Part shown: piece after piece, positions 4,276 to 53,377 of the stretch
How the letters are laid out: the number at the start of each line of letters is the position of its first letter
Position numbering within the stretch: position 1 is the stretch's first letter
Assembly (NCBI GenBank): GCA_963767005.1
Contig: CAVYCN010000019.1
Coordinates: 108,080-172,079 of the forward strand
Length of the DNA: 64,000 nt
Origin: an uncultured Actinomycetes bacterium
GTDB lineage: Bacteria > Actinomycetota > Thermoleophilia > UBA2241
Direction: 5' to 3'
Position numbers and translations under genes: made by a program
Notes under the pieces: model-generated
Told to the model about the DNA's origin: nothing
The model's input: the letters and a program-made list of their open reading frames with translations, nothing else
Database searches by the model: none

Positions 4276-4311
4276 GCCGCGCGGTCGGCGCCGCCGTCAG
4301 ACGGCGGCGGG

Positions 4312-6413
4312 CTACCTGGTCGTCGCCGCTCCGCGCCCGCCCCGACCCCCTGCGAAGATGCGCGCATCGAGGGCGACACAGCCCCGGGCCAAAGCGATCC
4401 GGGGTTCAAGTCGATCTCGGCGATCTCGGTGTGACGACCAGAAGGTCGCCGATCCTGACGAGACGTCGGCGACCGCGTCGCGGTGAACCGGCGGCTGGCC
4501 GCGGAAGCCTCGAGCGGCCGCGCGGCGGCAGCTCGGTGGCGTCTCCAGGCCGTCTGGGCGTCGCAACGACGCGACGCGGAACACAACGTCGGCCAGCAGC
4601 TCGGCCAACACGCCGCCCAGCCCGCCATCACCGTCGGCCCGAAGGTGGCGTCGCGCACGGCGCCAACGATCGACTCGCGACCGCCGAAGACGTGGCCGGC
4701 CACGAGGACGCCGTCGATACGCGCACCCGGCAGCGCGTGCTCACGGCGCAGCCGAGCGTGGCCAGGCCCGCTCGCAGCCCCGTCTCGTCGCTCAGACCGA
4801 TGACCACGCCGCCGGCGACGGTCTTGTGGACCACGTCGCGGGAGATGACCTTCAGGACGACCGGGTAGCCGATGCGCGCGGCGATGCCGGCAACGGCCTC
4901 GGCGGCAGAGCCCATGCCGTGCTCGACGCAGGAGATGCCGCAGAGCAGAAGGAGCGCGGCGGCTTCCGGCTCCAGCAGCATGCTCGTCGAGCTGCTCCGC
5001 GGTGACGCTCACGATCCCACCTCCGCTCCCCGTCGTTTCTCCGCATACCAGCAGCCGGCGGCGATCGCCCGCATCGCCCGCTCCGGCGATGGGAAGACGC
5101 GGGCACGCCCAGCCGCTGCATCCTGCGCCGTTCGACCTGTTCGACGGCGCCGCCGCCGTAGTACGCGGCGCAGACGGCGGCCCGCGGACTTCGGCGGCCA
5201 GCTCGGCGGCCAGCTCCGCCGCCCCCGGGACCGGGTCGCCGAAGATCAGCAGGATCGTGTCGACGAACCCGGCGGCGTCGGCCAGCCGCGCCGCCGTGCG
5301 GAACTGGTCCACACCGATCGTCGCCAGGTCGAGCGGATTGGCGAACGAGCCCCACTCGGCGAGGTCCATGCCCCTGAGCCCCGCGACGAGGTCGGGCGGC
5401 AGGACGGGCAGGACGAGGCCGTGCGCGTCGCCCACGTCGGCGGCGAGCGCGCAGCTACCGCCGGACGAGGAGACGACGAGCACCCTGCGCGCCCGGTAAC
5501 GGGCGCACGCTCGCGAGGATCTTGGCGGCGTCGTAGAAGGATTCGGAATCGTCGGCCGCGCCACGCCGTACTCGCGGCGGGCCCGCTCGAACACCTGATC
5601 GGAGCCGGCGAGCGACCCGGTGTGCGAGGCGACGGCCTCGCGGCCGCGCTGCGAGCGCCCGCACTTGGACACAGCGAGCGGCTTCTTCAAGGCCACGCTC
5701 CTGGCGGCCGCCACGAAGCGCGGACCGTCGGACACGCCCTCGAGGTACAGGGCCACGGCCCGCGTGTCGTCGTCGTCGGCCAGCAGGTCCGCACCGCGTC
5801 CGCCTGCGCAGATGTCGGCCTGGTTGCCGAGACTGATCGAGGCACTGACGCCGAGGCCGTCGTCCTGGGCCCAGTCGGTGATCACGCCGCCACGACCGTG
5901 CCGCTCTGCCCGACCACCGCGAGGGGCCCGTGCTCGGTCGTCGCCCGGCCAGAACACGGCGCACAACCGGTTGGGCCCGTACGACACGCCCTGGATGTTG
6001 AGCCCGAACAGGCGCAGGCCGCGCTCGCGCGCGATGGCCACGAGCTCCCTGTCGAACTCGGGCTTGCCGGAGACTGACTCGCGCCCGCCGGCGCTGATCA
6101 CGATCGCTCCGGCCGCTCCCTTGTCGGCGGCCTCGTGCAGGACGCCCGGCACGAACCGGGCTCGCGCGGCGATCACCACGAGGTCGATCTCGCCGGGGAT
6201 GTCCGTGACCGCGGGGTAGCACGTGAGGCCCGACACCTTCTCGGCCCTGGGGTTGACCGGGAAAACCTCGCCGGTGAACCCCCCGGCCAGGATCGACGGC
6301 ACCAGCACGCCGCTGAACTTGCTCGGGTCCTGCGACGCACCGACCACGGCGACGCGTCGCGCCTTCAGCATCCGCCAGATGGCGTCCGTGTCACCCACCA
6401 CGCTCTCCTTCAC
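4312..6413 (-). pseudogene. ADP-forming acyl-CoA synthetase (acetate--CoA ligase [ADP-forming] family, fused alpha/beta), at least 8 frame breaks
   Basis: CoA-binding N-terminus: RRVAVVGASQDPSKFSGVLVPSILAGGFTGEVFPVNPRAEKVSGLTCYPAVTDIPGEIDLVVIA. Followed by LYLEGVSDGPRFVAAARSVALKKPLAVSKCGRS...ASHTGSLAGSD. The ATP-grasp part is in other frames (ORF 4628-4981: YPVVLKVISRDVVHKTVAGGVVIGL). The C-terminus is EIDLNP...VALDARI (ORF 4312-4611). The probable start is one of the GTGs at 6398-6413, after AAGGAGAG. Confidence 0.8.
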
Positions 6414-6458: not shown

Positions 6459-7833
6459 TCACCGCAGCAGCTCGAGCGCGACCTGCTCGACGAAGAACGC
6501 CTCGAACGCCAGGTCGGCCACCGCGATGCGCTCGTCGACGTTGTGGCAGCGCGGCCACACGTCCTTGTAGCTCTCCACGACGTGCGGATCGAAGTTGTGG
6601 GCGACGACGTCGGGGAAGGCGCGCGCAGCCAGCGCGAGTCGGTGAACCCGACGCAGTGCGTGTTGCCCAGGACGGCGCCCGGCACGTGGCGCTCGAGCAC
6701 CGCGCGCACGGCCTCCGAAAGCGGCGACGGGTACGGCGAGGCGTTGCCGCGCACGACGTTGATCCATTCGAGCTCCCACTCGGCCTCGACGCCCTGTAGC
6801 GCGGCATACACCATGGCCTGGACGCGGCCTCGTCGTCGCCGGCCAGCGTGCGGCAGTCCACGCCGAGCTCCACCCCCTGTGGTCGGAAAGACGTTCACTC
6901 CCCCGGGTTGTCGGACCGCACGGTGGTGACCGAGAACGCAAAGCCGTACAGCGGCTCGATCATGGCGGCCAGGCCGGGTTCGCGATCCGCCAGCTCGTCG
7001 AGGGCGGCGCGCGCCCGCGCGGGGTCGCGCAGGCGGGCGCGCAGGTCGGGATGCCGGCGACCAGGTACCCGACGAGGTCGCGCGACTGATCGACGACCTC
7101 GACCGGCAGCTCGCAGGCGGCGAGCGCCGCGGCCACGCGTGCGGCGGCGAGCACGGCGTTGCCCTGCCGCAGCGGCACCGAGCCGTGACCGGCGCGGCCG
7201 TGCACGACGATGCGGAACTGGGCCGCGCCCTTCTCGCCGCTCTGCAGCAGGAAGAGGCGGCGATCGCCGCACGGCACGTAGGCGCCGTCTCCCTCGTTCA
7301 GGACGTAGTCGCAGCGCAGGAGATCGGGGCGCTGCTCGAGCAGCCAGCGCACCCCGCCACCGGTGCGGCGCTTGCCCACCGTCGGCCGTGCAGGCATAGG
7401 TGACCGTGCCGGCGAAGGGCGCGCCAGTGGCGGCCAGGCGCCGCACGGCGACGGCGTTGGCCGCCACGAGGTTCTTGATATCCACGGCCCCGCGGCCCCA
7501 GACGTAGCCGTCCTTCACGAGGCCCGAGAACGGCGGGACCTGCCAGTCGGCCGGGTCAGCCGGCACGACGTCTTCGTGGGCCAGCAGCAGGAGGGTCGGC
7601 CCCGGCCTGCTGCCCTCGAGCCGGCAGACGAAGCTGGCTCGCCCAGGCTCGCCGACGACCTCGCCCTGCAGCCCGTGCCCACGAAACCACTCGGCCATGA
7701 ACGTCGCCACGGCCGTCTCGTTGCCCGGCGGGTTGCTCGTGTCGATCTGGATGAGCCGGCTGAGCAGGTGGGCCGACTCGCGCTCCAGGTCGGCCATCAG
7801 CGCCGGGTCGAGGCCGATGGTCGTGGTGGTCAT
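6459..7833 (-). pseudogene. M20-family metallopeptidase / amidohydrolase (ArgE/DapE/ACY1/CPG2-like), about 6 frame breaks
   Basis: Starts MTTTTIGLDPALMADLERESAHLLSRLIQIDTSNPPGNETAVATFMAEWFRGHGL...LLLLAHEDVVPADPADWQVPPFSGLVKDGYVWGRGAVDIKN. Continues GVRWLLEQRPDLLRCDYVLNEGDG...QFRIVVHGRAGHGSVP, and ends DERIAVADLAFEAFFVEQVALELLR. The ATG at 7833 overlaps the upstream stop (ATGA). Confidence 0.8.
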
Positions 7834-9339
7834 GTCACACCTCCGAAGCGTCGGCCGGCGGCTGCGAGCGACTCTCCGCGCGAGGCGTGGCTGGTTGCCC
7901 AGTCCGGCGCCGCGACGCGGGTGGCCGCGGCATGGTCGCGCACGTACTGCTTGATGCGCTGCACCACGTCGGACGGCGCGCCGTACGCGAAGGGCCCGCT
8001 CCAGGATCTCCTCAACCCTGGCGTGGGCGCGCGCCAGCATCGTGTACTCGTCGCCGGTGCGACCCCGTGTGGTTGAAGGAGCCGCCGTAGTAGTGCTCGC
8101 CCGCCTGCACGGCGCGCCTGGTGTGCGTCTCGCCGAGGAACGAGCCGCCCGGGCCGATCTTCTCGATGATCTCGTAGGCCAGGGTCGCATCGTCGACCAC
8201 GATCTCGGTGGAGAGGCGCTGCGCCATCTCCCAGATGTCGTGATCGATCACGACCTGCTCGTAGCTGTGGTGGGCGGCGTTGTCGAGCGGGCCGCCCATG
8301 GTCACGAAATCGGCCTCGCTCTGGGCCAGGATGAGGATCGCCATGGCCTTTTCGATGCCCGCCTGGACGTCGGGCCACTGCGAGTCGCTGTACCCGCCCA
8401 TGCGCGTCGTCGGTAGGCCGTAGTACCTGGCCAGCGCCATCTCGCCGCTGCTGATCAGGCAGGTCTCCGCCGCGCCCATCGACAGGTAGCCGGTGCGCAT
8501 GTTCATGAGGGAGCCGGTCGGAGCGTGCAGGACCTTCGCTCCCGGCCAGATCGTGTTGGCCAGCGTGCACAAAAAGAGCGTCTCGGCATCACCCAGCAGC
8601 AGGTTGGCAGCCACCACGTCGCCGGCGTGGCGACCCCGGCGATCGGCATGGGGCAGACGTCGACCGGACAGTGCCGCCCGACGACGTGCATGATGATGTC
8701 GCCCTCGCGCGCGCCCAGCACGAGCGGCGTGGTTGTGTTGATCTCGGCCCACGTGCCGGGAGCGCTGTCGAGGCTGTCGGTGCCGGCCGCCACCATCGCG
8801 AGATCGAGCGACGTGCGGGCGTCGCCGACGTTGCCTGGCGCGCAGAGACTGAGCTTGCCGGTGACGGCCAGCACGAGCCCGAGCGTGTCGGCCACGTCGA
8901 TCTCGGCCGGCACGTCGCTCGACGGGTACTGGATGGCGACCGTGAACTCGGCGCCGGGCAGCGCGTTGGTCACCCGGCAGAGATCGATCACGTCCTGGCG
9001 GCGGGGCGGGCGGAACTCGTGAGCGCCGTAGTCGAGCATCTTCGGCATCTTCACGCGCACGCCGGCGTGCTGCCTACCGTCGGGGACGGTGAACCGCGAC
9101 CCGCCCGGGCGCACGAGCTCGAAGGTCCGCGGGAGCTGAGCCATCGCCTCCTCGACCATGGCGGCGGGCAGACGCACCACGTCGGTCTGCCCCAGCGCCT
9201 TGGCGCCGGCGCGCTCGAGCACCTCTCGGCAGCGGTCGTTCTCGACGCGCACGCCGACGTTCTCGAGGACCCTCAGCGACTCGGCGTGGATCCGGTCGAG
9301 CGCCTTCTCGTCGAGCAGGGACACGGCCTTGGTCGCCAT
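7830..9339 (-). pseudogene. MttB-superfamily (trimethylamine methyltransferase-like) protein without pyrrolysine codon, about 3 frame breaks
   Basis: Starts MATKAVSLLDEKALDRIHAESLRVLENVGVRVENDRCREVLERAGA, from ATG 9339 preceded by AAGGGGAG. Continues VVAANLLLGDAETLFLCTLANTIWPGAKVLHAPTGSLMNMRTGYLSMGAAETCL...IEKIGPGGSFLGETHTRR. No in-frame TAG; the interruptions are frame changes near 8625, 8060 and 7990. Confidence 0.8.
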
Positions 9340-9359
9340 CTCGTCGCACGCTCCCCTTG

Positions 9360-10641
9360 TCAGCGGCCGCGAGCGCCGTCGCCCACCGCGGCGGTCGCGA
9401 GGGCGAGGCCCTGGGCCGCCATGCGGCCGAGCGCACGCTGCCAGGCGGCCACGACCTCGCCCAGCACGCCGTCGTCCATCGGCGTCGAGAGGTTCATGCT
9501 GCCGCGCGGCGCGATGTAGAGGCCTTCCTCGAGGCAGGCGCGATGGAAGGCCAGCGGCGCCGCCGAGTTCACCTGCAGCAGCGAGCCGTAGTTGTGCACG
9601 CGTACGTCGAGGCCGGCGGCGTCGGCCGCGTCGTTGAGCAGGCGCGACAGGCTGTCGCCGAAGCCGTTGATGCGGTCGCAGGCTGCCGTGTCGAGCATGT
9701 CGAGGCTGACGCAGCCCGCGGCCAGGCACAGGGGGCTGCCGTTCATGGTGCCGTGGGCCGACAGCGGCTCGGGGATGCGCGGGTCGAAGATCCGCATGAC
9801 CTCTTCCTTGCCCCCGTAGGCGCCCAGCGGCATGCCGCCGGCGATCGTCTTGCCGACCGTTGTGAGATCGGCCTCGATGCCGTGCTCCGCCTGCCAGCCG
9901 CCGGGGTGCAGGCGAACGGTGATCGTCTCGTCGAGGATGAGCAGAGCGCCGTGCTCGTGCGCGAGTCGCAGCGCGGCGCGGATGAACTCGGGGTCGCCGG
10001 GCTCGAGGATGTGGCCCAGGATCGGCTCGAGCAGGATGGCGACTGTTGGGGCCGTGCGCCTGCATCAGCTCCTCGAGATGGGCGACGTCGTTGAAGCGCA
10101 CGAAGTGGCACATGCCGGCGAGCGCCTGGGGGATGCCCATCGGGACAACGCCGGCGCCGTCAGGGTGAGCCTCGTCGGCGCCGCTCAGGGAGACCTGGTC
10201 CCAGCTACCGTGGTAGCCGTTGGCGGGCATGATGATGTCGTCGCGGCCGGTGAACGCGCGCGCCCCTCGCACGGCCATCATGACCGCCTCGGTGGCCGAG
10301 TTGGTGAAGCGCACGAGGTCGATCGAGGGCGTCCGCGAGCAGAGCCGCTCGGCGAGCTCACCCTGCAGGGCGATAGGCGCGGGCATGGCCGCGGCCAGAC
10401 CGTGGGGTGCCGTGCGCGTCATGGCCTCGACGATGCGCGGATGCGCGTGGCCGTGGACCAGGGCGGTGTAGTTGTTGATCAGGTCGATGTAGGCGTTGCC
10501 GTCGACGTCCCAGAGGCGGCAGCCCTCGCCCCGCTCGATGCCGATCGGGAACGGATCGTAATGGGTCACCGTCCTCGTGTTGGCGCCGGGCATCACCTTC
10601 GCCAGCCGCTCGAAGAGCTCGCGTGATCTGTCGTCTCTCAT
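9360..10641 (-). pseudogene. Class-III PLP aminotransferase, glutamate-1-semialdehyde 2,1-aminomutase-like, one frame break near 10050
   Basis: Starts MRDDRSRELFERLAKVMPGANTRTVTHYDPFPIGIERGEGCRLWDVDGNAYIDLINNYTALVHGHAHPRIVEAM...FTNSATEAVMMAVRGARAFTGRD. Continues VAILLEPILGH...LILDETITVRLHPGGWQAEHGIEADLTTVGKTIAGGMPLGAYGG. ATG 10641 is preceded by GGAGAGG. Confidence 0.8.
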
Positions 10642-10732
10642 CTGCCTCTCCTGCACGATCGGGGCTTGGCGTAGTGGGCAAGCGCAACGCGCCGGTCACC
10701 GACTTGCCCGCCCGCGGGGGCTGGATGCGTAT

Positions 10733-10751
10733 CGTATGCAATCAGCATACC
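10733..10751. promoter_or_regulatory. Palindromic operator candidate GTATGC-N5-GCATAC upstream of the aminotransferase/MttB/M20 genes
   Basis: cGTATGCaatcaGCATACc, about 90 nt upstream of ATG 10641, forms an AT-rich island in GC-rich DNA. The same hexamer recurs at 19727-19748 (GGTATGCGCAGAGTATGCGTAG) and 20776-20795 (GTGCATACACACCGTATACG). Confidence 0.3.
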
Positions 10752-10768
10752 GAGCGCGGTGATGGCGG

Positions 10769-11804
10769 TCAACGGAAGATGAACCCTTCCCCGACGGGGT
10801 CGTCGGGGTCGACGAAGAAGGTGGCCGTACCGGTAAGGAAGGCCGCGCCCGTGACCTCGGGCACGACGGCCCGGTGACGACCGACGCCTGAGCGCGCGAC
10901 GACGGACACGGCGAAGCACGTGCCGAGGATGCTCTCGATGACGATGGTCTCGCCGTCGCCGAGCTGGCCGGCATCATGCAGCAGGGCGGCCCGGGCGCTG
11001 ACCCCCGTGCCGGTCGGCGAGCGGTCGACCTCGCCCTCGGCAAAGACGCAGACGTGCCTGCTGTGGTGGCGCTCGTCGGCCGGCGGGCCGGTGAAGATGA
11101 CGCCGTAGAGGAAGCCCAGGTCGGGGGCGTTCGGGTCGTCGATCGTGAGCTGGGCCGCGACCGCCTGCTTGACCAGCTTTCCCACACAGACCAGGCGATC
11201 GTGCTGGCCTGGCACCAGCGACAGGCCGAGGTCGGCCGCGTCGCAGAAGGCGTAGTAGGCGCCGCCGAAGGCGACGTCGCAGACCGTCGTGCCGATGCCC
11301 TCGAGCCTCACGTCGACGCCGCGCCGGTAGACGAACGACGGCACGTTGGCGAAGCTCACCGTGTGCACGGTCCCGCCCGCCGCCGTCGCGCGGGCCACCA
11401 CGAGACCGGCCGGCGTGTCGGTTCTCACCGAGCGACTCGGCGCCCTCGCCGGCCGCGACCATGCCCGTCTCCAGGAGCACCTTCGTGAAGCCGATGATGC
11501 CGTGCCCGCACATGGTGCTGAAGCCCTCGTTGTGCAGGAACAGCACGCCGCAGTCGCTACCCTCCGTCACCGGGGCGGTCGGGATCGCGCCGTACATGTC
11601 GGCATGACCGCGCGGCTCCCACATCAGCGTCCGCCGCAGGCCGTCGAGATGCTCCTGGGCGTAGCGACGTTTGGCGAGCATCGTGTCGCCCGGGATCGGC
11701 GGCAGCCCCTCGACGATCACCCGCAGGGGCTCGCCGGCGGCGTGCACGTCGATGGTCCGCAGGACCGGTGAACCCCCGGGTACGTGCGGCGTGACCTGCG
11801 CCAT
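10769..11804 (-). pseudogene. Proline racemase / hydroxyproline epimerase / 3-hydroxyproline dehydratase superfamily protein (Cys/Thr catalytic pair), one frame break near 11430
   Basis: Reads [16 protein letters not shown]...[14 protein letters not shown]...[18 protein letters not shown] (first catalytic Cys), then [10 protein letters not shown]...[17 protein letters not shown] (Thr where racemases and epimerases have Cys). The ATG at 11804 overlaps the stop of the MtmB-like gene (ATGA). Confidence 0.8.
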
Positions 11805-13189
11805 CAGCCGTAGAAGGGCGGATCGCGGAACTGCAGCCCCATTGCTTCCAGACCTGCCCTTGCCTCTTCGTATGCCGCGCGGATCTCCGGGCCGGGGCGC
11901 CGCGTCGCTACCTCGTAGCAGTCCTGATAGCGCAGACCGAGCGGCGGGTCCTTGAGCTTGTCCTCGTAGGCGTCGAGCAGCCGCAGGACGATCGCGTTGA
12001 CCTCGGCCCGGGGCAGACCGACCACGGACCGCCCGACCTCGGCGGCAAGCAACGGCTCCGCCGGCGAGACGTGATCGGGGTGCGTGGCGCGCGCGGCGGG
12101 GCCGGCCTCGACGCTGCCGCCGCTCACCACGCAGGTTGCGGCCATCGCCGCCGCCTCGTACAGGCTCATCGTCGTCCCGGGCCCGGCCGCGTAGACACCC
12201 GACTCGAGACAGGGCACGTCGCTATGGGTGGTGACCGCCTGCATCGCCACCGACCGCACCCAGATGACGTCGCGGCCGGCGACGGACTGCGTCTCGAAGT
12301 GCGTCACGTACGGGTGCTGGACGGCGGCCTGAAGGACGAGCAGCGCGAAGAAGTGATAGGCGGCGAGCGTGATCGCACAGCCGGCCGGACCACCCGCGTA
12401 GCCGCCGATCACCTGCCCGGTGCCGCCCAGCACGTGGCGACCCTGCGAGCGTGCGAACGCGACCCGGCTCAGATTGTCGAAGTCGATCTTGAGCTCGGCG
12501 ATGTTGCCGATCTCGGTCACGTCGTGGCTGCCGGCGAGGGCGCCGCCGGCGATGTTCCCCTGCGCCTTGACGCCGGTCGGCACGAGGTTGGAGATGCCCA
12601 GACCGGGGCGCCCGGCGGCGTGGCGCGCCGCCTCCCGCGTCATGGCGACCGTGCGCAGGCACCCCTCGACCTCGAGAGGGCTGCCGGCGACGACCGGCAG
12701 GCCGTCGATCTGCGCCATCGCCGGCGAGGCGACGGCGTCGATGTGGGGCAGCTCGCAATAGGCTTGCGTGAGGCTCGCGAAGACGTCGTCGCTGGTGACC
12801 GCCGCGCCGCAGGCGCCGAGCGAGAAGAACGGCTCGATCGCGCTCTCGGGGCGGCGGGTCGGGATCGCCCTGGCCTGCTGCCCCTCGCCCAGGACGACGC
12901 CGCGCGGCGCTTCGGCCAGCGCCTGGTCGAGCTCGAGCTCGTCGAACGCGACCACTCGCTCGGTGTCGACGCAGTAGACCCCGACGCGCAGGAACAGCTC
13001 GCGGCCGGCCTGCCAGACGCGTTCGGCGAGGTCGTCGTCACTCGGGATCGGCGTCTCGGGCGTGTAGACGATCCCGTGCTTCTTGACGAGCTCGCGGACC
13101 GCCGGGATGAAGCGCTTGAGGTCGAAGTCGCCCTGGTTACAGATCTCGCCGCTCACGGCGCGGCGGTAGAAGTCGACGCTCGAGAGCAT
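11804..13189 (-). CDS. MtmB-family (monomethylamine methyltransferase-like) protein lacking pyrrolysine; intact 461 aa
   Basis: It aligns colinearly with Methanosarcina MtmB as I recall that sequence. Query [22 protein letters not shown]...[20 protein letters not shown] matches MtmB DFYDRAKVGEKCTQDDWDLMKI...GIYCTDTHRIV. Active-site loop [21 protein letters not shown] matches GRPGMGV-Pyl-GPETSLSAQGNI. C-terminus ...YQDCYEV...[13 protein letters not shown]. No in-frame stop. ATG 13189 is preceded by GAGGAG. Confidence 0.85.
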
Positions 13190-13195
13190 CCGCCA

Positions 13196-13843
13196 TCAGC
13201 TCCTCTGGCGCCGGGCCAGGGCGACGGCGTCGGCCGCCGTCTCTCCGTAGCCGTCGGCCCCGATCTCGCGCGCCCACTCCGCGGTGACGGCCGCACCGCC
13301 GACCATGACGAAGAAGTCGTCCCTCCTGCCCGCCGCGGCCAGATGCTCGAGGACCTCGCGCTGCTGCGGGATGGTCGTCGACATGAGGGCGCACACGGCG
13401 ATCACCTCGGCGCGCGCATCGCCGGCGGCCGAGACAAAGCGCGACGCGGGAACATCGACGCCGAGGTCGACCACCTCGAACCCCGAGGCCTTCAGCATAG
13501 TGGCGACGATGTTCTTGCCGAGCGAGTGGATGTCGCCCTTGACGGTGCCGATCACGACCTTGCCCCTGGCGTCGGCGCGCGTGGCGCCCTCGAGCAGCGG
13601 CTCGACCAGGTCCATGCCGGCCTGCCAGGCTTCGGCCGCGAGCATCATCTCGGGCAGGTAGACCTCTTCGCGACGGAACTGCTCGCCGACCTCGCGGATG
13701 CCGGCCACGAGCCCGTCGTCGAGCAGGGCGCGCGGCGCAAGACCGGCCTCGAGACCCTCCCGTACGAGCGCCGGCACCCGGTCGAAGTCGGCCTCGACGA
13801 AGGCCGCCACGATGCGGCAACCCCCGCTCGGCCTGCGCATCAC
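13196..13843 (-). CDS. Cobalamin-binding corrinoid protein (MtmC/MtbC/MttC-like methyltransferase partner)
   Basis: The B12-binding DxHxxG motif lies in VVIGTVKGDIHSLGKNIVATMLKASGFEVVDLGVDVP. There is an N-terminal helical cap domain and a C-terminal Rossmann part ...VMVGGAAVT. Intact at 215 aa. It stops 6 nt before the MtmB-like start. Confidence 0.85.
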   Translation of the reverse strand: MMRRPSGGCRIVAAFVEADFDRVPALVREGLEAGLAPRALLDDGLVAGIREVGEQFRREEVYLPEMMLAAEAWQAGMDLVEPLLEGATRADARGKVVIGTVKGDIHSLGKNIVATMLKASGFEVVDLGVDVPASRFVSAAGDARAEVIAVCALMSTTIPQQREVLEHLAAAGRRDDFFVMVGGAAVTAEWAREIGADGYGETAADAVALARRQRS

Positions 13844-14021
13844 TCATACCGTACCTTCCTGTCGTTCCGTCACGTCGAGGTCAGGGGTCCCGCCGGCCCA
13901 GTGCAGACACCGGCCAGCAGCGGTCGGCCGCAGTCGCGGCCGCCGGCCAGGGTCCACGAGGCGCCGCTCCACGAGCGTCGCCGGGGAGTCCGAGTACTTC
14001 CCGTGAGGCCTTCGTGTCGCT

Positions 14022-15939
<1,918 letters not shown>

Positions 15940-15943
<4 letters not shown>

Positions 15944-16830
15944 ATCACTGCCAACCGGCTCAGCTCGTCGCCGGCGAGGACCCGCGACAGGGCATCGGCG
16001 GTGAGGTTGAGTGACACGGCCAGGCACGTGATGCCGAGCGCCGGCAGCATGGTGCCCCACGGCGCCACGGTGATCAGGGCACGGTTCTCGGCCACCATCA
16101 GCCCCCAGTCCGGCGTCGGCGGCTGCACGCCGAGGCCGAGGAAGCTGAGCGTGGCGACGAACAGGATGCCGTAGGTGAGCCGCAGGCCGAACTCGGCGAG
16201 GGTCGGCCCCGAGACGTTGGGCAGCACCTCGCGGAAGATGATCGACAGGTCCCGTTCGCCGCGCGCCTGCGCGGACAGGACATAGGGGTTGACGATCACC
16301 GACTGGGCCGTGCCGCGCACCACCCGCCCCATGCCCGGCGCGTACACGAGCGCGACGACAGTGATCAGCACCGTATCGGAGGAGCCGACCGCGCCGATGA
16401 TCACGAGCACGATGAGCAGCGGCGGCAGGGTGAGCATCACGTCGAACACCTTGGAGATCACGACGTCGGGCCAGCGGCCCCAGTAGGCGGCGAACAGGCC
16501 GAGGCTGCCGCCGACGATGAGCGAGAGCGTCACGGCGACGAGCGGGATGAGCAGCACGGTCACGCCGCCGTGCAGGAAACGGCTCAGGACGTCGCGCCCG
16601 AGGGCGTCGGTACCGAACCAGTGCGCCGCCGACGAGGGCGAGCCCGGAGCGCCGGCGTCGTAGTTCGTGCCGGGCCCGAAGAAGCGGCCGAGCACGATGA
16701 GCCCGATCATGAAGGCGCCCAGGCCGATGCCGATCTTGCCTTCCGTGGTCTGCAGCACGCCGCGGAGCACGCTGCGCCGCGGTGCGACGCTCGCCACGGA
16801 AGCGGCGGCCGATGATTCTGCAATGCTCAT
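15940..16830 (-). CDS. ABC transporter permease (DppC/OppC-like)
   Basis: Intact 296-aa polytopic protein with HWFGTDALGRDVLSRFLHG and the EAA-type loop YVLSAQARGERDLSIIFREVLPN. Confidence 0.85.
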
Positions 16831-16833
16831 CTC

Positions 16834-17874
16834 TCAGCCGTTCCTGAGTCGGGGGTTGTAGAAGGTCACAAGGACGTCGGCGGCGACTCCGATGGCGATG
16901 AAGAGGACGCCACAGAGCATCGCGACCGCCTGGACCACGAGCAGATCGCCGTCGGCGATGGACTGGACGAGCAGCGTGCCCATGCCCGGGAAGCCGAACA
17001 CGTTCTCGACGATGATGACACCACCGACGAGCCAGATCAGGTCGAGGGCCACGGCGTTGATGATCGGGCCCGAGGCGTTCGGCATGAGGTGCTTGTAGAC
17101 GATGGTGCGACGCGACAGTCCGCGCAGGACCGCCGCGCGCGCGTAGGGTGTCGTCATCGTCTCGCGCACGGAGACCTGCGTGAGCCGCGAGATGTGCGGC
17201 AGCAGCGAGATCACCAGCGTGGTGGTCGGCAGGATGAAGGCCTGGATCTTGCCGGACACCCCCCCGAACGACATGCCGGTGCTGTCGACCGGTGTCAGGC
17301 CGAGCTTCACGGACAGCGCGTAGATCAACACGATGCCGATGACGAAGACCGGGATCGCGGCCACCGACACGTTCATGATGGAGAGGCTGAGCTCGCGCAC
17401 CCGCGAGCCGGGTCTGGCAAGGTAGACGCCGAAGGCGATCGCGATCGGCAGGGCGACGATGATCGAGGTCAGCGCCAGGATGAACGTATTGACGAACTTC
17501 GGCATGACGATGCCGCTCACGGGATCGTTCGTGACCGCCGACGTGCCCCAGTCGCCGTGCAGGAACCCGACGAGCCACTGCTCGTACTGCACGATCACCG
17601 GCCGGTCGAGCCCGTGCGCGCGGTTGAAGTCGGAGAGCTGCTGCGGCGTGGCCTGGCGACCGAGGACGCGGCGCGCCACGTTGATGCCCAGCACGTGCGT
17701 CGAGGCGAAGACGATCAGCGAGATCAGCAGCAGCGTGACCAGGGCGGGAATGAGGCGCGACCGCACGAGCAGCCACGCCACCGACGCCGCACCCCCCCTG
17801 CCGGGGGGTGCGGCGAACGCTTCGGTGGAAGCCAGCGCCGCCTCGGGTAGAGACGGTTCCGAACCTTCCGTCAT
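16834..17874 (-). CDS. ABC transporter permease (DppB/OppB-like)
   Basis: Intact polytopic ORF with RVLGRQATPQQLSDFNRAHGLDRP and YARAAVLRGLSRRTIVYKHLMPNA. I prefer the ATG at 17874 (ATGA overlap with the SBP stop) over the track start at 17889. Confidence 0.85.
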   Translation of the reverse strand: MTEGSEPSLPEAALASTEAFAAPPGRGGAASVAWLLVRSRLIPALVTLLLISLIVFASTHVLGINVARRVLGRQATPQQLSDFNRAHGLDRPVIVQYEQWLVGFLHGDWGTSAVTNDPVSGIVMPKFVNTFILALTSIIVALPIAIAFGVYLARPGSRVRELSLSIMNVSVAAIPVFVIGIVLIYALSVKLGLTPVDSTGMSFGGVSGKIQAFILPTTTLVISLLPHISRLTQVSVRETMTTPYARAAVLRGLSRRTIVYKHLMPNASGPIINAVALDLIWLVGGVIIVENVFGFPGMGTLLVQSIADGDLLVVQAVAMLCGVLFIAIGVAADVLVTFYNPRLRNG

Positions 17875-19493
17875 GCGTAGAACCCGCACTGCCGGAAGTC
17901 GAGCATGGAGAACGTCCAGGGTACGACCCTGGTGCCGACCCTCGAGGTCCAGAGGCGATTGAGGTAGGCGGGGATCATCTCGCCGCTGCCGCCGTCACCG
18001 GAGGCCATCCATTCGCAGCACTCGGTGGTCGCCGCCGTGAGCGCGTCGCCGGTCGACGCGTACGCCTTGGTGAGCAGCGCGTCCATCTTGGCGCTCTTCC
18101 ACTTGGACTCGTTCCACGGCGCGCTGCTCTGGCAGTTGAGCGCCATGGTCTCGACGGGATGACGCCGGTTCCAGTCGTCGACGCAGAACGGATCCTTCAT
18201 CCACACCGTGTCCCAATAGGTGTCGGCCGGGATCTGCTTGACGGTGATGCGGAAGGGCGAGCCCTTGGTCGCGGCCGCGAAGGCCAGGCTGAAGTTGGCG
18301 TGCAGCGCGTCGCCGGGGGCCTTCAGGTTCAGGTCGATGCCGCTGGCGTAGCCGGCCTCGGTCATGAGCTGGGTCGCCTTGGCGCGATCCATCTTCGTCG
18401 TCGCGATCAGCGTGTCGTTCATGAACGGGTCGTCCATCGCGACCCAGGCGTCGGGCGACGCGAACCCCTGCCCGCCGTAGGCGATGTTGATGACGTTGTC
18501 GCGGTCGATCGAGAGCTTGAGGGCCTGGCGCACCCGGGGGTCGCTGAACGGCTTGGTCGTACAGTCGCACACGACGCAGTACGTGATGCCCTTCTCGTAG
18601 GGGTTGACCTGCAGCTTGGAGTTGGCCTTGACCACGGCGAGCTGGTCGAACGAGACCTGGGTCACGCTCGCCGCGCCCGACGCGACCGACTGCAGCTTGG
18701 TCGACTCTTCGGGGTCCTGGATGCCGCGCACGGTGTCGACGATCGGATAGCCCGTCATCCAGTAGGCCGGGTTCTTGTCGACCTCGAAGGACTGACCTTC
18801 GTTGTAGAACTTGAGCTTGAACGGGCCGGTCCCGATCCCCTTGGCGTAGTCGGCTTCCTTGCTGTTCGCCTTGACGAGGTAGCACTGCTGGTTGGACAGC
18901 GCCAGCAGCAGGAGCGAGTCGGGGCGCTTGAGCTTGAGCTTGAGCGTCAGGTCGTCGACGACGACGACGCCGTTCTTGTCGATGCTCGAGTCGAGACGCT
19001 GCATCATGCCCGAGCCGCCCTCGGGCGACATGATCCGCTCGATCGACCAGGCGGCGTCCTTCGCCGTGAACGGCGTGCCGTCGTGCCAGGTGACGTTGGG
19101 GCGCAGATGGAAGGTGTACTCCGTGAGCTCGGGATTGACGTCCCAGGTCTGCGCCAGGCGCGGCACCGGCTGGAACTTGAAGTCGTAGGACACAAGACCT
19201 TCGCGCAGCATGCCCTCGAGCGCGTCCTGGCCGTCGTCGATGTTCTTGAGCGGATCGAGGCCGTCCTTGGGGAACAGCTGATCGGTCGCGAACGTGAAGA
19301 CCCCGCCGCGCTTGATGGCCCTCGACGAGGCCGTCGGCGCGGCGCCCGTCCCTGAACCGCTGCTCCCGCAAGCGGCCAGCAGGCCGGAGCTTGCGAGCCC
19401 CGCTCCCAGGCCGACGACAGCGCCGGCCTGCAGCAGTTGACGCCGCGTCAGGCGTACGCCCAGGGGGCCTTCTGCTTCACCTCGTGACTTCAC
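17871..19493 (-). CDS. ABC transporter substrate-binding lipoprotein, family 5 (peptide/opine/nickel type)
   Basis: The N-terminus RRQLLQAGAVVGLGAGLASSGLLAACGSS has a twin-arginine and a lipobox. Size is 540 aa, with typical family-5 segments (KNPAYWMTGYP, GIDLNLKAPGD). GTG 19493 is preceded by GGGAGG. Confidence 0.85.
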   Translation of the reverse strand: MKSRGEAEGPLGVRLTRRQLLQAGAVVGLGAGLASSGLLAACGSSGSGTGAAPTASSRAIKRGGVFTFATDQLFPKDGLDPLKNIDDGQDALEGMLREGLVSYDFKFQPVPRLAQTWDVNPELTEYTFHLRPNVTWHDGTPFTAKDAAWSIERIMSPEGGSGMMQRLDSSIDKNGVVVVDDLTLKLKLKRPDSLLLLALSNQQCYLVKANSKEADYAKGIGTGPFKLKFYNEGQSFEVDKNPAYWMTGYPIVDTVRGIQDPEESTKLQSVASGAASVTQVSFDQLAVVKANSKLQVNPYEKGITYCVVCDCTTKPFSDPRVRQALKLSIDRDNVINIAYGGQGFASPDAWVAMDDPFMNDTLIATTKMDRAKATQLMTEAGYASGIDLNLKAPGDALHANFSLAFAAATKGSPFRITVKQIPADTYWDTVWMKDPFCVDDWNRRHPVETMALNCQSSAPWNESKWKSAKMDALLTKAYASTGDALTAATTECCEWMASGDGGSGEMIPAYLNRLWTSRVGTRVVPWTFSMLDFRQCGFYA

Positions 19494-19835
19494 TGGTTAC
19501 CTCCCTGTCGTCGTCGTGCTCGGGGACGATGTGTGGGGAACGGGCCGGGACCCTGGAACGAACCTGTGCGCTCCCCCCGGATGCGCGGACCGCGCCGGAA
19601 GCTCGTCGCGCCACCTGCGGCGGCGCCTTCTGCTACCCGGCCGCGGGGTCGGCTCACGTCATGGACCCTCCTTTGCGGAATGTCTGAACGGCTGCGGCTT
19701 GCCGGGCCTGTGTGGCGTACACTTCTGGTATGCGCAGAGTATGCGTAGCCCTCCGTGGTCGTCAAGAACGTCGTGCAGCGAGGTTCGCGGGACCTCCTGA
19801 TCGGACCGGGGCGCGGCGTCGCGAAAGGAGAGACC

Positions 19836-20750
19836 GTGGGTGAGAAGGTCGGGTTCATCGGGCTCGGTATCATGGGCCGGCCGATGGCGAGGAACCTGCT
19901 GAAGGCCGGTCACGACCTCGTGGTGCTCGACGTCGACCCGCGCGCCGTGGCGGCGCTGGTCGCCGACGGGGCCCGGGGTGCCGCGTCGCCGGCCGAGGTG
20001 ACCGACCGCGCGCCGTGGGTCGTCACGATGCTGCCCGGCGGGCCGGCGGTCGAGGAGGTCGTCCTGGGGGCCGACGGGGTGCTCACCGCCGCCCGGGCGG
20101 ACACCGTGCTGGTCGACATGAGCAGCACGTCGCCCGGCACCGCCAGGACCGTCGCCGCGGCCCTCGAGGCGCGCGGCGCCTCGTCCCTCGACGCTCCGGT
20201 CAGCGGCGGCGAGCCGGGCGCGGTGTCCGGTGAGCTCGTGATCATGGCCGGAGGGCAGCCCGACGTGTTCGCGGCGGCCGCGCCGCTCTTCGCGGCGCTC
20301 GGAAAGCGCGCCGTGCTGGTCGGACCGAGCGGCGCCGGCCAGACCGCGAAGCTGGTCAACCAGCTCCTCGTCGCCGCCCACCTCGAAGCCATGGCGGAGG
20401 GCCTCGCGCTGGCCTCGAGCGCGCACGTCGACCCGCGCCTGGTCCTGGAAGCGATCAGCGGCGGGCTCGCCGATTCGGCCGTGCTCGCCGCCAAGGGTCC
20501 GCTGCTCCTCGCTCGCGACTTCGCGCCCGGCGCCAGGATCGAGATCCATCGCAAGGACATGAAGAACGTGCTCGCCGCGGCCCGCGACCTGGGGCTGACG
20601 CTGCCGGTCGCAGAGCTGCTCGAGGTCATGTTCGACACGCTGGTCGGACAGGGCAAGGGTGGGCTCGACCACGTCGCGCTGGCGCAGGTCGTCGAGGCCA
20701 TGAACGGCATCGAGATCGGCGGCGCCGGCAGGCTCGGCTACCTCCCTTGA
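19836..20750 (+). CDS. NAD(P)-dependent 3-hydroxyacid dehydrogenase (3-hydroxyisobutyrate / tartronate-semialdehyde reductase family)
   Basis: Rossmann motif KVGFIGLGIMGRPMARNLLKAGH, then DAPVSGGEPGA and GAGQTAKLVNQLL. GTG 19836 is preceded by AAAGGAGAG. Intact. Confidence 0.8.
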   Translation: MGEKVGFIGLGIMGRPMARNLLKAGHDLVVLDVDPRAVAALVADGARGAASPAEVTDRAPWVVTMLPGGPAVEEVVLGADGVLTAARADTVLVDMSSTSPGTARTVAAALEARGASSLDAPVSGGEPGAVSGELVIMAGGQPDVFAAAAPLFAALGKRAVLVGPSGAGQTAKLVNQLLVAAHLEAMAEGLALASSAHVDPRLVLEAISGGLADSAVLAAKGPLLLARDFAPGARIEIHRKDMKNVLAAARDLGLTLPVAELLEVMFDTLVGQGKGGLDHVALAQVVEAMNGIEIGGAGRLGYLP

Positions 20751-20876
20751 CAGCCTCCGGCTTGCCACCTACGATGTGCATACACACCGTATACGATTCC
20801 GCCAGCGAGGTGATTGTGTACGTCCCTGCCCATCATCGTCCCGTCAACGTCCCTCCGCCCGAAAGGTCTTGCTGAC

Positions 20877-21545
20877 ATGGCCAGGAGCATGGCTTCCGCA
20901 GGCAACGCCGGTCAGTACGAGCGCGCCAGCGACACGGCGCTGCGGGAGTTGCGCCGGATGATCATCACGCTGGAGCTCGCCCCCGGCGAGGCCATCACCG
21001 AGGAGAGCCTGGGCGCCCGCCTGAAGTGCTCGCGCACGCCGATCAGAGAGGCGCTGCAGCAGCTCGTGCGCGAGCACCTCGTGGTCGCCACGCCTCACCG
21101 CGGGGTGTCGGTGGCGACGCTCAACCTGACCGACTTCTTCGCCATGCTCGAAGCCACCGAGGCGGTCGACGCGACCCTCATGCGGCTGGCCGCCGAGCGG
21201 CTGACCGACGAGCAGATCGCCGAGCTCGACGAGCTCCTGCGACAGTCCGACGAGGCCGAGGCGGCCGGCGACTTCGAGCAGGTCGTGGAGCTCGACTTCC
21301 AGTTCCACAGCGTCATCGCGACCGGCTCGTCCAATCACTTCCTGATCGAGTTCCACGACACCCTCCACCGTCTCTCGACGCGCTTCGTGTTCCTCGGCTT
21401 CAGGCGCGCCGGCACGGCGGCCGGCGCGATCGAGGATCACCGCGTGATGCTCGAAGCGCTCCGCGCCCGCGACGCCGACCGCGCCGAGAGTGCCGCACGC
21501 GCGCACTGCCGTCACGCCCGCGAGCGCATGATGGCCGGGCTCTGA
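20877..21545 (+). CDS. GntR-family transcriptional regulator with FCD domain
   Basis: HTH region reads ITEESLGARLKCSRTPIREALQQLVREHLVVATPHRG. FCD helices read FQFHSVIATGSSNHFLIEFHDTL...HRVMLEALRARDADRAESAARAH. Intact. ATG 20877. Confidence 0.85.
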   Translation: MARSMASAGNAGQYERASDTALRELRRMIITLELAPGEAITEESLGARLKCSRTPIREALQQLVREHLVVATPHRGVSVATLNLTDFFAMLEATEAVDATLMRLAAERLTDEQIAELDELLRQSDEAEAAGDFEQVVELDFQFHSVIATGSSNHFLIEFHDTLHRLSTRFVFLGFRRAGTAAGAIEDHRVMLEALRARDADRAESAARAHCRHARERMMAGL

Positions 21546-21575
21546 GACCGTCCGCGGCCGGCCCCGTCAGGTCCT

Positions 21576-21601
21576 AGAAGCGGCGGGGCGTGCCCGCTTC
21601 T
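21576..21601 (+). terminator. Hairpin after the second gntR gene
   Basis: AGAAGCGG (21576-21583) pairs with CCGCTTCT (21594-21601), with a 10-nt loop. It lies 30 nt after the stop at 21545. Confidence 0.4.
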
Positions 21602-21687
21602 GTCCACCGTTGCCACAGGCCAACGCGACCGGGGAGATCAGACCGTGAAGAGACGCCATCTGGGACTTCGCAGACTCTCAGCAGTGG

Positions 21688-22602
21688 ATGGAGCGCACCA
21701 GCAAGTTCCCGCCCCTCGTGATCACGGTGGCGGTCAACGGCGGCATCCAGGGCAAGGAGAGCCACCCGGCGCTGCCCGAGCTGCCCGAGGAGATCGCCGA
21801 GCAGGCTCACGAGGCCTACCAGGCCGGCGCTTCGGTCGTCCACATCCACGGCCGCGACCTCGCCGACTTCACCAACTGCACCGAAGATCCCGAGGTCTAT
21901 CGCCAGATCAACGGCCTGGTGCGGGCGAAGTGCCCGCAGATCATCATCAACAACACGACCGGCGGCGGACCGACCACGACCATGGAGGCCCGCATCGCCT
22001 GTCTCGACGCACTGCCCGAGATGGCCTCGCTCAACCTCGGCCCCGACATGGAGCGCTTCGAGCTGGCGGCCCGCAAGCCCCCGCTGCCCCACCCGCGCGA
22101 GGCCGTGCTGGTCGACATGTGCATGCCGTTCACCTACGGCTTCATCGACCGGCTCGCCACGGTGATGCTCGACAAGGGGATCAAGCCCGAGCTCGAGATG
22201 TACCACCCGGGCGAGTACTGGGTCAGCCGCGGCCTCATCGCGCGCGGGCTGATCAAGCCGCCCTACGCCCACCAGTTCGTCATGGGCGTGCAGACGTGCA
22301 GCTATCCGACCCCCTGGAACGTGCTGGAGATGCTGCGCGAGCTGCCCGACGATTCGCTCTTCACGGTCGCCAGCATCGGCAAGTTCCAGTGGCCGCTGGC
22401 CGCGCTCGGCATCATCCTCGGCGGCAACGTGCGGGTCGGCCTCGAGGATAACCTCTACCTGTCCCGCGGCGTGAAGCTCAAGGGCAACGGCGAGGCCGTC
22501 GAGAAGGTCGTGCGTCTGGCCCGCGAGCTCGGCCGCGAGGTCGCCACGCCGGCGCAGGCCCGCGAGATCTACGGCCTGTCCCCCACGCCGAGCACCTACT
22601 GA
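21688..22602 (+). CDS. Beta-keto acid cleavage enzyme family protein (BKACE/DUF849; 3-keto-5-aminohexanoate cleavage enzyme-like)
   Basis: Reads PLVITVAVNGG...LPELPEEIAEQAHEAYQAGASVVHIHGRD...IIINNTTGGG...GNVRVGLEDNLYLSRG, the TIM-barrel BKACE pattern as I know it. Intact at 304 aa. Confidence 0.75.
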   Translation: MERTSKFPPLVITVAVNGGIQGKESHPALPELPEEIAEQAHEAYQAGASVVHIHGRDLADFTNCTEDPEVYRQINGLVRAKCPQIIINNTTGGGPTTTMEARIACLDALPEMASLNLGPDMERFELAARKPPLPHPREAVLVDMCMPFTYGFIDRLATVMLDKGIKPELEMYHPGEYWVSRGLIARGLIKPPYAHQFVMGVQTCSYPTPWNVLEMLRELPDDSLFTVASIGKFQWPLAALGIILGGNVRVGLEDNLYLSRGVKLKGNGEAVEKVVRLARELGREVATPAQAREIYGLSPTPSTY

Positions 22603-22657
22603 GAGGTCACACGCGCGCGCAGGGCGCTCGCTCGAGATCACGAGAGGGAGACGGGGC

Positions 22658-23692: not shown

Positions 23693-23721
23693 ACGCCGCC
23701 CTCCGCGCCTAGGAGCACGCC

Positions 23722-24920
<1,199 letters not shown>

Positions 24921-24924
<4 letters not shown>

Positions 24925-47552: not shown

Positions 47553-47559
47553 CGGCCGC

Positions 47560-50131: not shown

Positions 50132-50154
50132 GACACATCCACTGTTACAGACAT

Positions 50155-50195
50155 GGCCGGCCGGCGCACCTCCCGCGGGGGCACGCCGGCCGGCC
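50155..50195 (-). terminator. GC-rich hairpin between mop and the downstream redox gene
   Basis: GGCCGGCCGGCG (50155-50166) pairs perfectly with CGCCGGCCGGCC (50184-50195). The 17-nt loop itself contains CCCGCGGG. Confidence 0.4.
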
Positions 50196-50297
50196 GGAGC
50201 GCCGGCCGCCTGGCGGCGGCCGGCGCGGACTTACCGTGCCGCCGATCGACTTCGTCGTCGGCGCTCAGGCATGCGCGGCTTCGCTGCGTGCCTCGCC

Positions 50298-53039: not shown

Positions 53040-53184
53040 AGACCGGCTCCTCTAGAGTCGACAGCAGGCCGCACATTTGCGAAGCGACGAGGCGCGCCAC
53101 AGAGTCACGCCCGCCTGAGCGACGACGACGGAGTCGCGCGACGGCACAGGAACCGAACGCACTGGACGCCGCCTCACCCCACGG

Positions 53185-53215: not shown

Positions 53216-53280
53216 ACACAACGGAGCACGAGTTGGACCGGCAGGCGACGTCACGCTCCCCGCCGGGACATCTTGGCAGA

Positions 53281-53327: not shown

Positions 53328-53377
53328 TCTCGTCGCGCCCACCCGCGGGCGAGCCCGCGCAGCCGCGATCCGGCCGG

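Follow-up and report, generated by a model that had tools for sequence, protein, structure and literature searches.

Pyrrolysine-free homologs of the monomethylamine methyltransferase MtmB have been known for years. Here we describe one of them, encoded beside its own corrinoid protein in a 64,000-nucleotide (nt) stretch of DNA from an uncultured bacterium (contig CAVYCN010000019.1, positions 108,080 to 172,079; this whole stretch, with a G+C content of ~72%, is referred to as the window). We judge it on balance likely that the gene cluster around this homolog encodes a substrate:corrinoid methyltransferase system whose substrate is an N-methylated compound taken up by the cell, possibly one derived from hydroxyproline. 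The host is an uncultured high-GC soil bacterium, probably a Thermoleophilia-like actinobacterium.

Among described systems, MtmB/MtmC of Methanosarcina barkeri shares with this locus the full-length Pfam family, the TIM barrel, the flanks of the active-site loop and an adjacent gene for a corrinoid protein with a DxHxxG motif. The two differ in that MtmB acquires pyrrolysine (Pyl) through an in-frame UAG, whereas the window protein has Ser at this position (its relatives have Ser or Ala), a loop longer by one residue and, in the alignment, Gly in place of Glu259. They differ in context too: MtmB belongs to methanogenesis, whereas the cluster lies in a bacterial, high-GC and probably aerobic host, among genes of amino-acid and peptide catabolism.

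The sole Pyl-free member of the family with a demonstrated function is MtqB, the tetramethylammonium/choline methyltransferase of Methanococcoides methylutens Q3c (Kashyap et al. 2026, PMC13044021). It methylates its own corrinoid protein from either compound, which according to its authors is the first function found for a Pyl-free MtmB; it is somewhat promiscuous, with trace activity on monomethylamine, and its pocket combines a conserved Met/Cys with aromatic residues (PMC13044021). The remaining Pyl-free MtmBs stand apart from the MtqB clade in the same authors' tree, where they are labelled 'of unknown function' (PMC13044021). A first-pass annotation of the window, made from the sequence alone, had held that no Pyl-free MtmB relative had an assigned substrate, a statement that MtqB has made outdated. 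MtqB/MtqC resembles our locus in pairing a Pyl-free MtmB-family enzyme with its own corrinoid protein. It is, however, a methanogen system that passes methyl groups to coenzyme M, and the importer, the hydroxyproline-dehydratase-type gene and the MttB homolog beside our MtmB-like gene point to a substrate other than that of MtqB.

That MttB homolog belongs to the same superfamily (PF06253) as MtgB, MtpB, MtcB, MtyB and MthB. The substrates of Pyl-free MttB enzymes include glycine betaine, carnitine, proline betaine, gamma-butyrobetaine and phosphocholine (PMC13080624, PMC12155760); all characterised members use quaternary amines, and the characterised monomethylamine methyltransferases need Pyl for activation of the amine (PMC13080624). 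The logic of these systems, namely a substrate-specific methyltransferase (MT1), a corrinoid protein and a separately encoded acceptor methyltransferase and RamA, would be shared by our cluster, and MtgBCD of Ruegeria pomeroyi shows that such systems work in aerobes (PMC12478193). Unlike the described ones, the MttB homolog here shares an operon with an MtmB-family enzyme. Our literature search returned no paper on an operon pairing the MtmB and MttB families, on this clade or on a link to hydroxyproline dehydratase.

The catabolism of proline and hydroxyproline betaines, as in the Hpb pathway of Paracoccus, proceeds through oxygenase-type demethylases of the Rieske or flavin kind, and trans-3-hydroxy-L-proline dehydratase pathways exist besides. 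The scheme is alike in that a proline-type betaine first undergoes N-demethylation and then passes to proline racemase superfamily enzymes. It differs from ours in that the Hpb demethylases are Rieske or flavin enzymes, whereas the putative demethylases of the window would depend on cobalamin, and no HpbD-type betaine epimerase is found in the window cluster.

A pyrrolysine-free MtmB-family protein and its corrinoid partner

The two genes at the centre of the cluster are the following.

11804..13189, minus strand: Pyl-free MtmB-family methyltransferase, 461 amino acids (aa) (PF05369, PDB match to MtmB, AlphaFold model)
13196..13847, minus strand: cognate corrinoid (B12-binding) protein (PF02310, PF02607, motif GDIHSLGKN)

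The first open reading frame (ORF) runs without interruption and holds no in-frame UAG. PF05369 (MtmB; 450 positions, cutoff 25 bits) matches it with E 1e-77 and 262.3 bits from position 4 to position 450 of the profile, and the M. barkeri MtmB structures 1L2Q, 1NTH and 1TV2 match its residues 5-454 (HMMER, E 7e-63). These matches bear out the first-pass description of a full-length, uninterrupted MtmB homolog, for which PF05369 had been named as the check. In the PDB entries of MtmB the active-site loop reads AGRPGMGV-K(Pyl)-GPETSLSAQGNI, and the HMMER alignment pairs a Ser of the window protein with Pyl202. A sense codon replaces the UAG, as had been proposed in the first-pass annotation, whose version of the loop proved correct. 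The flanks (GRPGxGx...AQGNI) are near-identical in the two proteins, and the window loop is one residue longer. In the PDB alignment, Gly takes the place of MtmB Glu259, which we take to be the residue contacting the Pyl ring in the MtmB structure. Relative to a near-identical contig introduced below (L003), the gene carries a 3-nt in-frame insertion at ~12618-12621 that turns the family-conserved RRAGRPG into RHAAGRPG; this is a probable assembly error, and the L003 protein has 460 aa.

The fold agrees with the family assignment. An AlphaFold model built from an alignment with 24 relatives reached a predicted local distance difference test (pLDDT) score of 87.9, and Foldseek matched it to 1L2Q with E 6e-42, a template modelling (TM) score of 0.93, a root-mean-square deviation of 1.7 A and 30% identity. 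MttB and MtgB came next as structural matches and were far weaker. Confidence is low in the loop at the Pyl region (residues 190-230; window 12589-12588 region), with pLDDT 54-72 and values <50 at residues 204-206, whereas the barrel outside it scores above 80-90. No model of an NCBIfam scan matched the protein. By family and fold, the ORF is a true Pyl-free member of the MtmB family, and from its sequence we presume it to be a substrate:corrinoid MT1.

The corrinoid gene, called in the window as ORF 13196-13843 on the minus strand, scores 98.2 bits with PF02310 (cutoff 32.1) and 54.3 bits with PF02607 (cutoff 23); with TIGR02370, the NCBIfam model 'methyltransferase cognate corrinoid protein', it reaches 206.1 bits against a cutoff of 215.3. 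Its DxHxxG motif reads GDIHSLGKN, and its TGA stop lies 6 nt ahead of the ATG of the MtmB-like gene; both had been noted in the first-pass annotation. That annotation had also called the gene intact, which holds for the 217-aa copy in L003. In the window its first ~10 codons are out of frame through 1-nt deletions at 13813 and 13820, the real start being the ATG at 13847.

The operon and its relatives

Many reading frames of the cluster are interrupted in the window, namely those of the ATPase, racemase-family, aminotransferase, MttB, M20 and acyl-CoA synthetase genes and of the corrinoid N-terminus, as would be expected of a decaying pseudogene island. A 30-kb public metagenome contig (ENA ERZ25039519 contig_90763; L003) speaks against decay. 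It aligns to window positions 20674-1766 (18.9 kb) at 98.1% identity, with 252 mismatches and 70 gap openings, and every cluster gene is whole in it, including the importer, the GntR regulator and the branched-chain aminotransferase. The length differences are mostly indels of 1-2 nt, bunched in stretches (dense at 1.8-8.6 kb and 13.8-14.8 kb, zero in 15-20.6 kb), and break at least nine genes in the window. Since L003 carries all of these genes intact, the breaks are assembly artefacts. Such a pattern of indels is what errors in the consensus of a long-read metagenome assembly would leave, and the 'contig_N' style of the contig names and a nearest genome from the Microflora Danica collection agree with this. 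Orthologs elsewhere are, moreover, whole and under purifying selection. We reject the pseudogene reading, which the intact L003 genes and the scattered 1-2-nt indels make most improbable, and the many frameshifts of the window should not be taken as biology. The breaks in the MttB, aminotransferase and M20 genes had been flagged in the first-pass annotation; they are present in the window, but as assembly indels facing intact L003 copies they no longer constitute a biological caveat. Two others had been passed over there, that in the racemase-family gene (two frames) and that at the start of the corrinoid gene.

With the L003 genes serving as the clean copy and coordinates mapped back onto the window, the remainder of the island and its flanks comprises the following genes.

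14022..19493, minus strand: peptide/opine-type ATP-binding cassette (ABC) importer (Pfam families on L003 genes), composed of the next three entries
17871-19493, minus strand: SBP_bac_5 binding protein (Pfam on L003; 540 aa there)
16834-17874 and 15940-16830, minus strand: two permeases (Pfam on L003)
14022-15943, minus strand: fused double ATPase (frame-broken in the window; 640 aa in L003)
10769..11804, minus strand: proline-racemase-superfamily enzyme, putatively of the trans-3-hydroxy-L-proline dehydratase type (Cys/Thr) (PF05544)
9360..10641, minus strand: class-III aminotransferase of the beta-transaminase / glutamate-1-semialdehyde (GSA)-aminomutase-like subgroup (PF00202)
7888..9339, minus strand: Pyl-free MttB-superfamily methyltransferase, presumed second MT1 (PF06253)
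6459..7833, minus strand: M20-family metallohydrolase (ArgE/DapE-like deacylase or peptidase) (PF01546)
4297..6398, minus strand: ADP-forming acyl-CoA synthetase (alpha 5009-6398, beta 4297-5012) (L003 Pfam)
3525-4275, plus strand: GntR/FCD regulator, distal end of the island (L003 annotation)
2479-3396, minus strand: branched-chain amino acid transaminase, distal end of the island (L003 annotation and NF005146)
19755..25859, plus strand: divergent operon (Pfam), composed of the next five entries
19755-20750, plus strand: 3-hydroxyisobutyrate-dehydrogenase-like gene
20814-21545, plus strand: GntR/FCD regulator
21649-22602, plus strand: beta-keto acid cleavage enzyme (BKACE)
22475-23692, plus strand: Zn-alcohol dehydrogenase
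23643-25859, plus strand: class I/II aminotransferase

The importer lies upstream of the corrinoid/MtmB-like pair on the same strand, and the closest solved relative of its binding protein is the agropinic-acid binder AgaA (6HLX, E 4e-33). Pfam likewise confirms the earlier placement of the aminotransferase, Pyl-free MttB and M20 genes on the same strand downstream of a peptide/opine importer. The racemase-family gene begins within the stop of the MtmB-like gene; an overlap had been reported, but the junction is TGATG (1 nt) and not ATGA. In the window the PF05544 match is divided between two reading frames (N-terminal part 10974-11804, C-terminal part 10769-11428, break at ~11428), and the gene is whole in L003 (344 aa). 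In the proline racemase superfamily a Cys/Thr pair marks dehydratases, whereas racemases and epimerases have a Cys/Cys pair. The protein matches 6R76 best in the PDB (E 2e-113), and 7QPO, deposited as 'trans-3-hydroxy-L-proline dehydratase', with E 3e-84; its MCGHG and DRSPTGTG align with the same motifs of 6R76 and provide the Cys/Thr pair. The best NCBIfam model is NF045511, trans-3-hydroxy-L-proline dehydratase (360.7 bits, under the equivalog cutoff of 540). Judging from these motifs and matches, the protein appears to be an enzyme of the trans-3-hydroxy-L-proline-dehydratase type and not a racemase, so that the word 'isomerase' in the first-pass annotation does not suit it.

The class-III aminotransferase, broken at ~10041-10043 in the window and 427 aa long in L003, has as its best PDB matches 6K8H, ForI, the beta-phenylalanine aminotransferase 4AO9 and the beta-transaminase 2YKU, and NCBIfam places it, under cutoff, in a GSA-aminomutase-like subfamily. 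Its likeness to beta-transaminases would fit a BKACE partner working on a beta-keto acid. The MttB-like gene is broken at ~8615, 8063, 8001 and 7895, with PF06253 pieces of 78.1 and 116.6 bits (cutoff 25); its L003 copy is uninterrupted (481 aa), in keeping with the Pyl-free MttB homolog that had been proposed. In the PDB, the encoded protein comes closest to the glycine betaine methyltransferase MtgB (9YCE/2QNE, E 1e-42). MtgB binds glycine betaine through Y97, R312, H348 and F356 (PMC13080624), and in the 9YCE alignment these face Met, Thr (followed directly by Arg), a gap and Ala; with four non-matching residues, an MtgB-type glycine betaine enzyme is ruled out. The M20 gene, frame-broken in the window, encodes 454 aa with M20_dimer in L003, and its NCBIfam matches are at the level of subfamilies only, all under cutoff. 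The acyl-CoA synthetase, also frame-broken, consists in L003 of a 457-aa part (CoA_binding/Succ_CoA_lig) and a 234-aa part (ATP-grasp_5), and scores 380 bits with TIGR02717 (acetate--CoA ligase alpha), under cutoff. The branched-chain amino acid transaminase (2479-3396) passes the cutoff of NF005146 (333.6 bits against 279).

A word-indexed search returned 117 relatives of the MtmB-like protein, ~55 of them at 55-75% identity to the query. The full-length members are all uninterrupted and therefore lack Pyl. An exhaustive HMMER search of 1.84 billion representatives yielded no more than 890 clusters (50% identity) at E <= 1e-3, of which 179 reached E <= 1e-30; the entire close clade falls into a single 50% cluster, and the nearest relative outside it shares 41% identity, so the family is small and the clade distinct. 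The Pyl-aligned position is occupied by Ala or Ser in the close clade, where the next residue is invariably Asn, and by Val, Met, Cys, His or Gly in other clades; the Asn is kept in most Pyl-free clades. Pairwise ratios of non-synonymous to synonymous substitution rates (dN/dS) within the clade are 0.13-0.29, and its MtmB-like genes are under purifying selection. The clade (55-75% identity) probably belongs to Thermoleophilia; the nearest named genome is an uncultured Thermoleophilia metagenome-assembled genome (Microflora Danica, MFD00032.bin.1.63), with 69% protein identity and identical gene order.

Gene neighbourhoods were compared by calling and clustering ORFs at 89 loci, 20 of them from the close clade, and the results were checked by tblastn. 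A corrinoid gene directly precedes the MtmB-like gene at most of the 89 loci and at all 20 of the clade, the adjacency that the first-pass annotation had looked to. A racemase-family gene follows at 10 of the 20, at times with a thiamine pyrophosphate (TPP) enzyme between. The proline link proposed earlier draws support from these 10 loci; the racemase role proposed with it does not stand. An MttB homolog occurs at six of the eight clade loci with long flanks, and in L001, L007 and L012 it forms an adjacent triad with BKACE and the class-III aminotransferase, genes of which the window has the BKACE in the divergent operon. Many relatives have an opine-dehydrogenase homolog (best PDB match CENDH, 1BG6) and an M19 dipeptidase between importer and corrinoid gene.

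Distant clades (~45% identity, with Chloroflexota-type names) usually have a single corrinoid gene followed by MtmB-like paralogs in tandem, two or three in number (for example at L009 6483-11386, L040, L023, L052, L067 and one JGI contig); 88 loci hold 136 MtmB-like copies. The tandem arrangement suggests that one corrinoid protein may serve several substrates or consecutive steps. Beside the tandem paralogs lies a block of PTE, MR_MLE, DHDPS-family, alpha/beta hydrolase, aldo-keto reductase, Iso_dh (an isocitrate/isopropylmalate-type dehydrogenase) and SBP_bac_5 genes, found in L009 (11403-18448) and about ten like loci (L028, L039, L044-L046, L049, L054, L059, L060); TRAP transporters, class-III aminotransferases and LarA-like genes are alternative neighbours. 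The PTE/MR_MLE block looks like a lactone or sugar-acid pathway, a hint that the methylated substrates of some MtmB-like enzymes may not be simple amines. We also considered MR_MLE and DHDPS as a hydroxyproline-betaine epimerase/deaminase pair, which would have favoured a proline-betaine theme across the family, and discarded it: the MR_MLE protein matches 3SJN best, then galactonate and rhamnonate dehydratases, and is not an obvious HpbD.

Two further associations were seen among the relatives. An enolase and a glycerate-kinase-like gene (DUF4147/MOFRL) stand directly beside corrinoid and MtmB-like pairs in L024, L026, L027 and one JGI contig, and Ldh_2-family and acetoacetate-decarboxylase-family genes follow the MtmB-like gene in L058 (8382-9437) and L076. 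The Ldh_2 family takes in pyrroline-2-carboxylate reductases and N-methyl-amino-acid dehydrogenases.

Proposed function and its alternatives

If the cluster is such a methyltransferase system, the ABC importer would bring in an N-methylated compound resembling an amino acid, a peptide or an opine. The MtmB-like TIM barrel would bind a methylammonium substrate and transfer a single methyl group to the neighbouring corrinoid protein in its Co(I) state, and the MttB-like enzyme would do likewise with another methylammonium compound related to the first, be it a substrate or an intermediate. The methyl-Co(III) protein would then be unloaded to tetrahydrofolate (THF) or homocysteine by a methyltransferase encoded elsewhere, with a RamA-type reductase, also encoded elsewhere, keeping the corrinoid protein active. 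The demethylated skeleton could be broken down by the neighbouring enzymes, that is, by the dehydratase-type enzyme, the beta-type class-III transaminase, BKACE, the M20 enzyme and the acyl-CoA synthetase. What we infer here are the methyl-transfer activity and its direction, the sharing of the corrinoid protein, the methyl acceptor and the identity of the substrate.

The substrate class is the weakest part of the proposal. Because the dehydratase-type gene is conserved and translationally coupled, we prefer a proline-type substrate and tentatively name an N-methylated (3-hydroxy)proline derivative, for instance hydroxyproline betaine or an N-methyl intermediate, while regarding this choice as doubtful. 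More speculative still, and in our view unlikely, is a cobalamin relay, at work in an aerobic soil actinobacterium, in which the MttB-like and MtmB-like enzymes together would strip a proline-type betaine of all its N-methyl groups. A betaine such as 3-hydroxyproline betaine or stachydrine would be converted to an N-methyl imino acid and on to the free imino acid, which would feed the coupled trans-3-hydroxyproline dehydratase.

Several observations weigh against these proposals. To our knowledge, all characterised Pyl-free enzymes of both families use quaternary amines, and a Pyl-free MtmB that demethylated a tertiary or secondary N-methyl imino acid would be without precedent. The clade loci L002, L008, L012, L017 and L019 lack the racemase-family gene, and the accessory genes (opine dehydrogenase, M19 dipeptidase, TPP enzyme, PTE, amidohydrolases) differ by locus, so the island may combine several pathways. 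L008 (7462-9998) has two corrinoid genes with an M20 gene between them, one behind the permeases and the other directly ahead of the MtmB-like gene, whereas the window has a single copy; this weakens the idea that one corrinoid protein has to serve both methyltransferases. Stepwise demethylation by the two enzymes through a single corrinoid protein, the suggestion of the first-pass annotation, is conjectural. Distant clades adjoin genes of sugar-acid type (PTE, MR_MLE, DHDPS), so substrates are heterogeneous across the family. Neither a methylcorrinoid:THF methyltransferase nor RamA was found among the 38 window ORFs compared with Pfam, in which frame-broken parts were not exhaustively scanned, or among the recurrent neighbour families of the 89 loci. 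An Rfam search of the window gave no cobalamin riboswitch, its sole match being a molybdenum cofactor (Moco) riboswitch far from the cluster. In the aerobic MttB-type system of Ruegeria, corrinoid protein, pterin-binding methyltransferase and RamA are scattered around the genome (PMC12478193), and the absence of these components near our cluster is therefore weak evidence.

Could the protein instead be an MtqB-type methyltransferase for tetramethylammonium, choline or a similar quaternary amine, with the amino-acid genes around it unrelated? The precedents run that way, as the sole characterised Pyl-free MtmB takes quaternary amines and is somewhat promiscuous (PMC13044021), and characterised Pyl-free MttB members are likewise quaternary-amine users (PMC13080624). 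The surroundings do not: genes handling choline, ethanolamine or methylamine are absent from the window cluster and the clade neighbourhoods, the importer is of the peptide/opine type and not of the BCCT or ProU type for betaine and choline, and a hydroxyproline-dehydratase-type gene lies downstream in 10 loci, with the 1-nt overlap in the window. The MtqB clade is also set apart from other Pyl-free MtmBs in the 2026 tree (PMC13044021), and we consider this explanation rather improbable, slightly more so than the relay. Less credible still is a true monomethylamine:corrinoid methyltransferase working without Pyl. JGI and NCBI label homologs 'methylamine--corrinoid protein Co-methyltransferase', but these labels are homology transfer only; the flanks of the Pyl position are unusually close to those of MtmB, but Gly replaces Glu259, presumably the Pyl-ring contact. 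The trace activity of MtqB on monomethylamine (PMC13044021) is offset by the requirement of the characterised enzymes for Pyl (PMC13080624), and the context is one of peptide and amino-acid catabolism, with no genes for methylamine uptake or assimilation.

The operon combines a single corrinoid gene with two methyltransferase genes, and no acceptor methyltransferase appeared in the window or any neighbourhood. This would also accommodate a transmethylase in series, in which the MttB-like enzyme loads the corrinoid protein and the MtmB-like enzyme unloads it onto an acceptor, no THF methyltransferase being required. Most related loci, however, have a corrinoid gene and MtmB-like genes (often two to three in tandem) without an MttB homolog, and the MtmB-like enzyme therefore does not need an MttB homolog. 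The gene for the acceptor methyltransferase often lies elsewhere in characterised systems (PMC12478193), and unloading of methyl-cobalamin is not known from any member of the two families. We give this arrangement hardly any credence.

We thus retain the methyltransferase system for an imported N-methylated compound as our reading. It describes an uncharacterised clade of a known type of system; it is not categorically new and provides a lead for substrate discovery, in which the conserved gene context trims the candidate substrates enough for direct enzyme assays. Were the substrate found, cobalamin-dependent demethylation would extend to soil Actinomycetota, and the label 'monomethylamine methyltransferase', which inflates inferences of methylamine cycling in metagenomes, could be corrected. 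It would also test whether Pyl-free enzymes are confined to quaternary amines. Should the relay be true, it would provide the first substrate for a bacterial Pyl-free MtmB and the first Pyl-free enzyme of these families to demethylate a tertiary and not a quaternary amine.

Other features of the window

The Moco riboswitch (RF01055) lies at 56400-56524 on the plus strand and scores 58.5 bits against a gathering score of 36. Downstream of it are two ORFs without a Pfam match (56669-57607, 57745-59355) and, further on, two Oxidored_molyb ORFs (59348-61712) and a ModA-like SBP_bac_11 gene with a permease (61610-63719). A run of redox genes occupies 46746-56206 on the minus strand:

46746-47657, minus strand: DUF364/DUF4213 gene
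47543-50230, minus strand: GltD-like Fer4_20/Pyr_redox_2 protein fused to a CCG-domain protein
50298-53051, minus strand: xanthine-dehydrogenase/CoxL-type molybdoenzyme with 2Fe-2S domains
53378-56206, minus strand: formate-dehydrogenase-like molybdopterin enzyme, in two pieces

This run could serve the oxidation of one-carbon compounds or formate. The whole window is best treated as an error-prone long-read consensus, and further apparent frameshifts in it are suspect, for example the split of the formate-dehydrogenase-like gene at 55039/55040.

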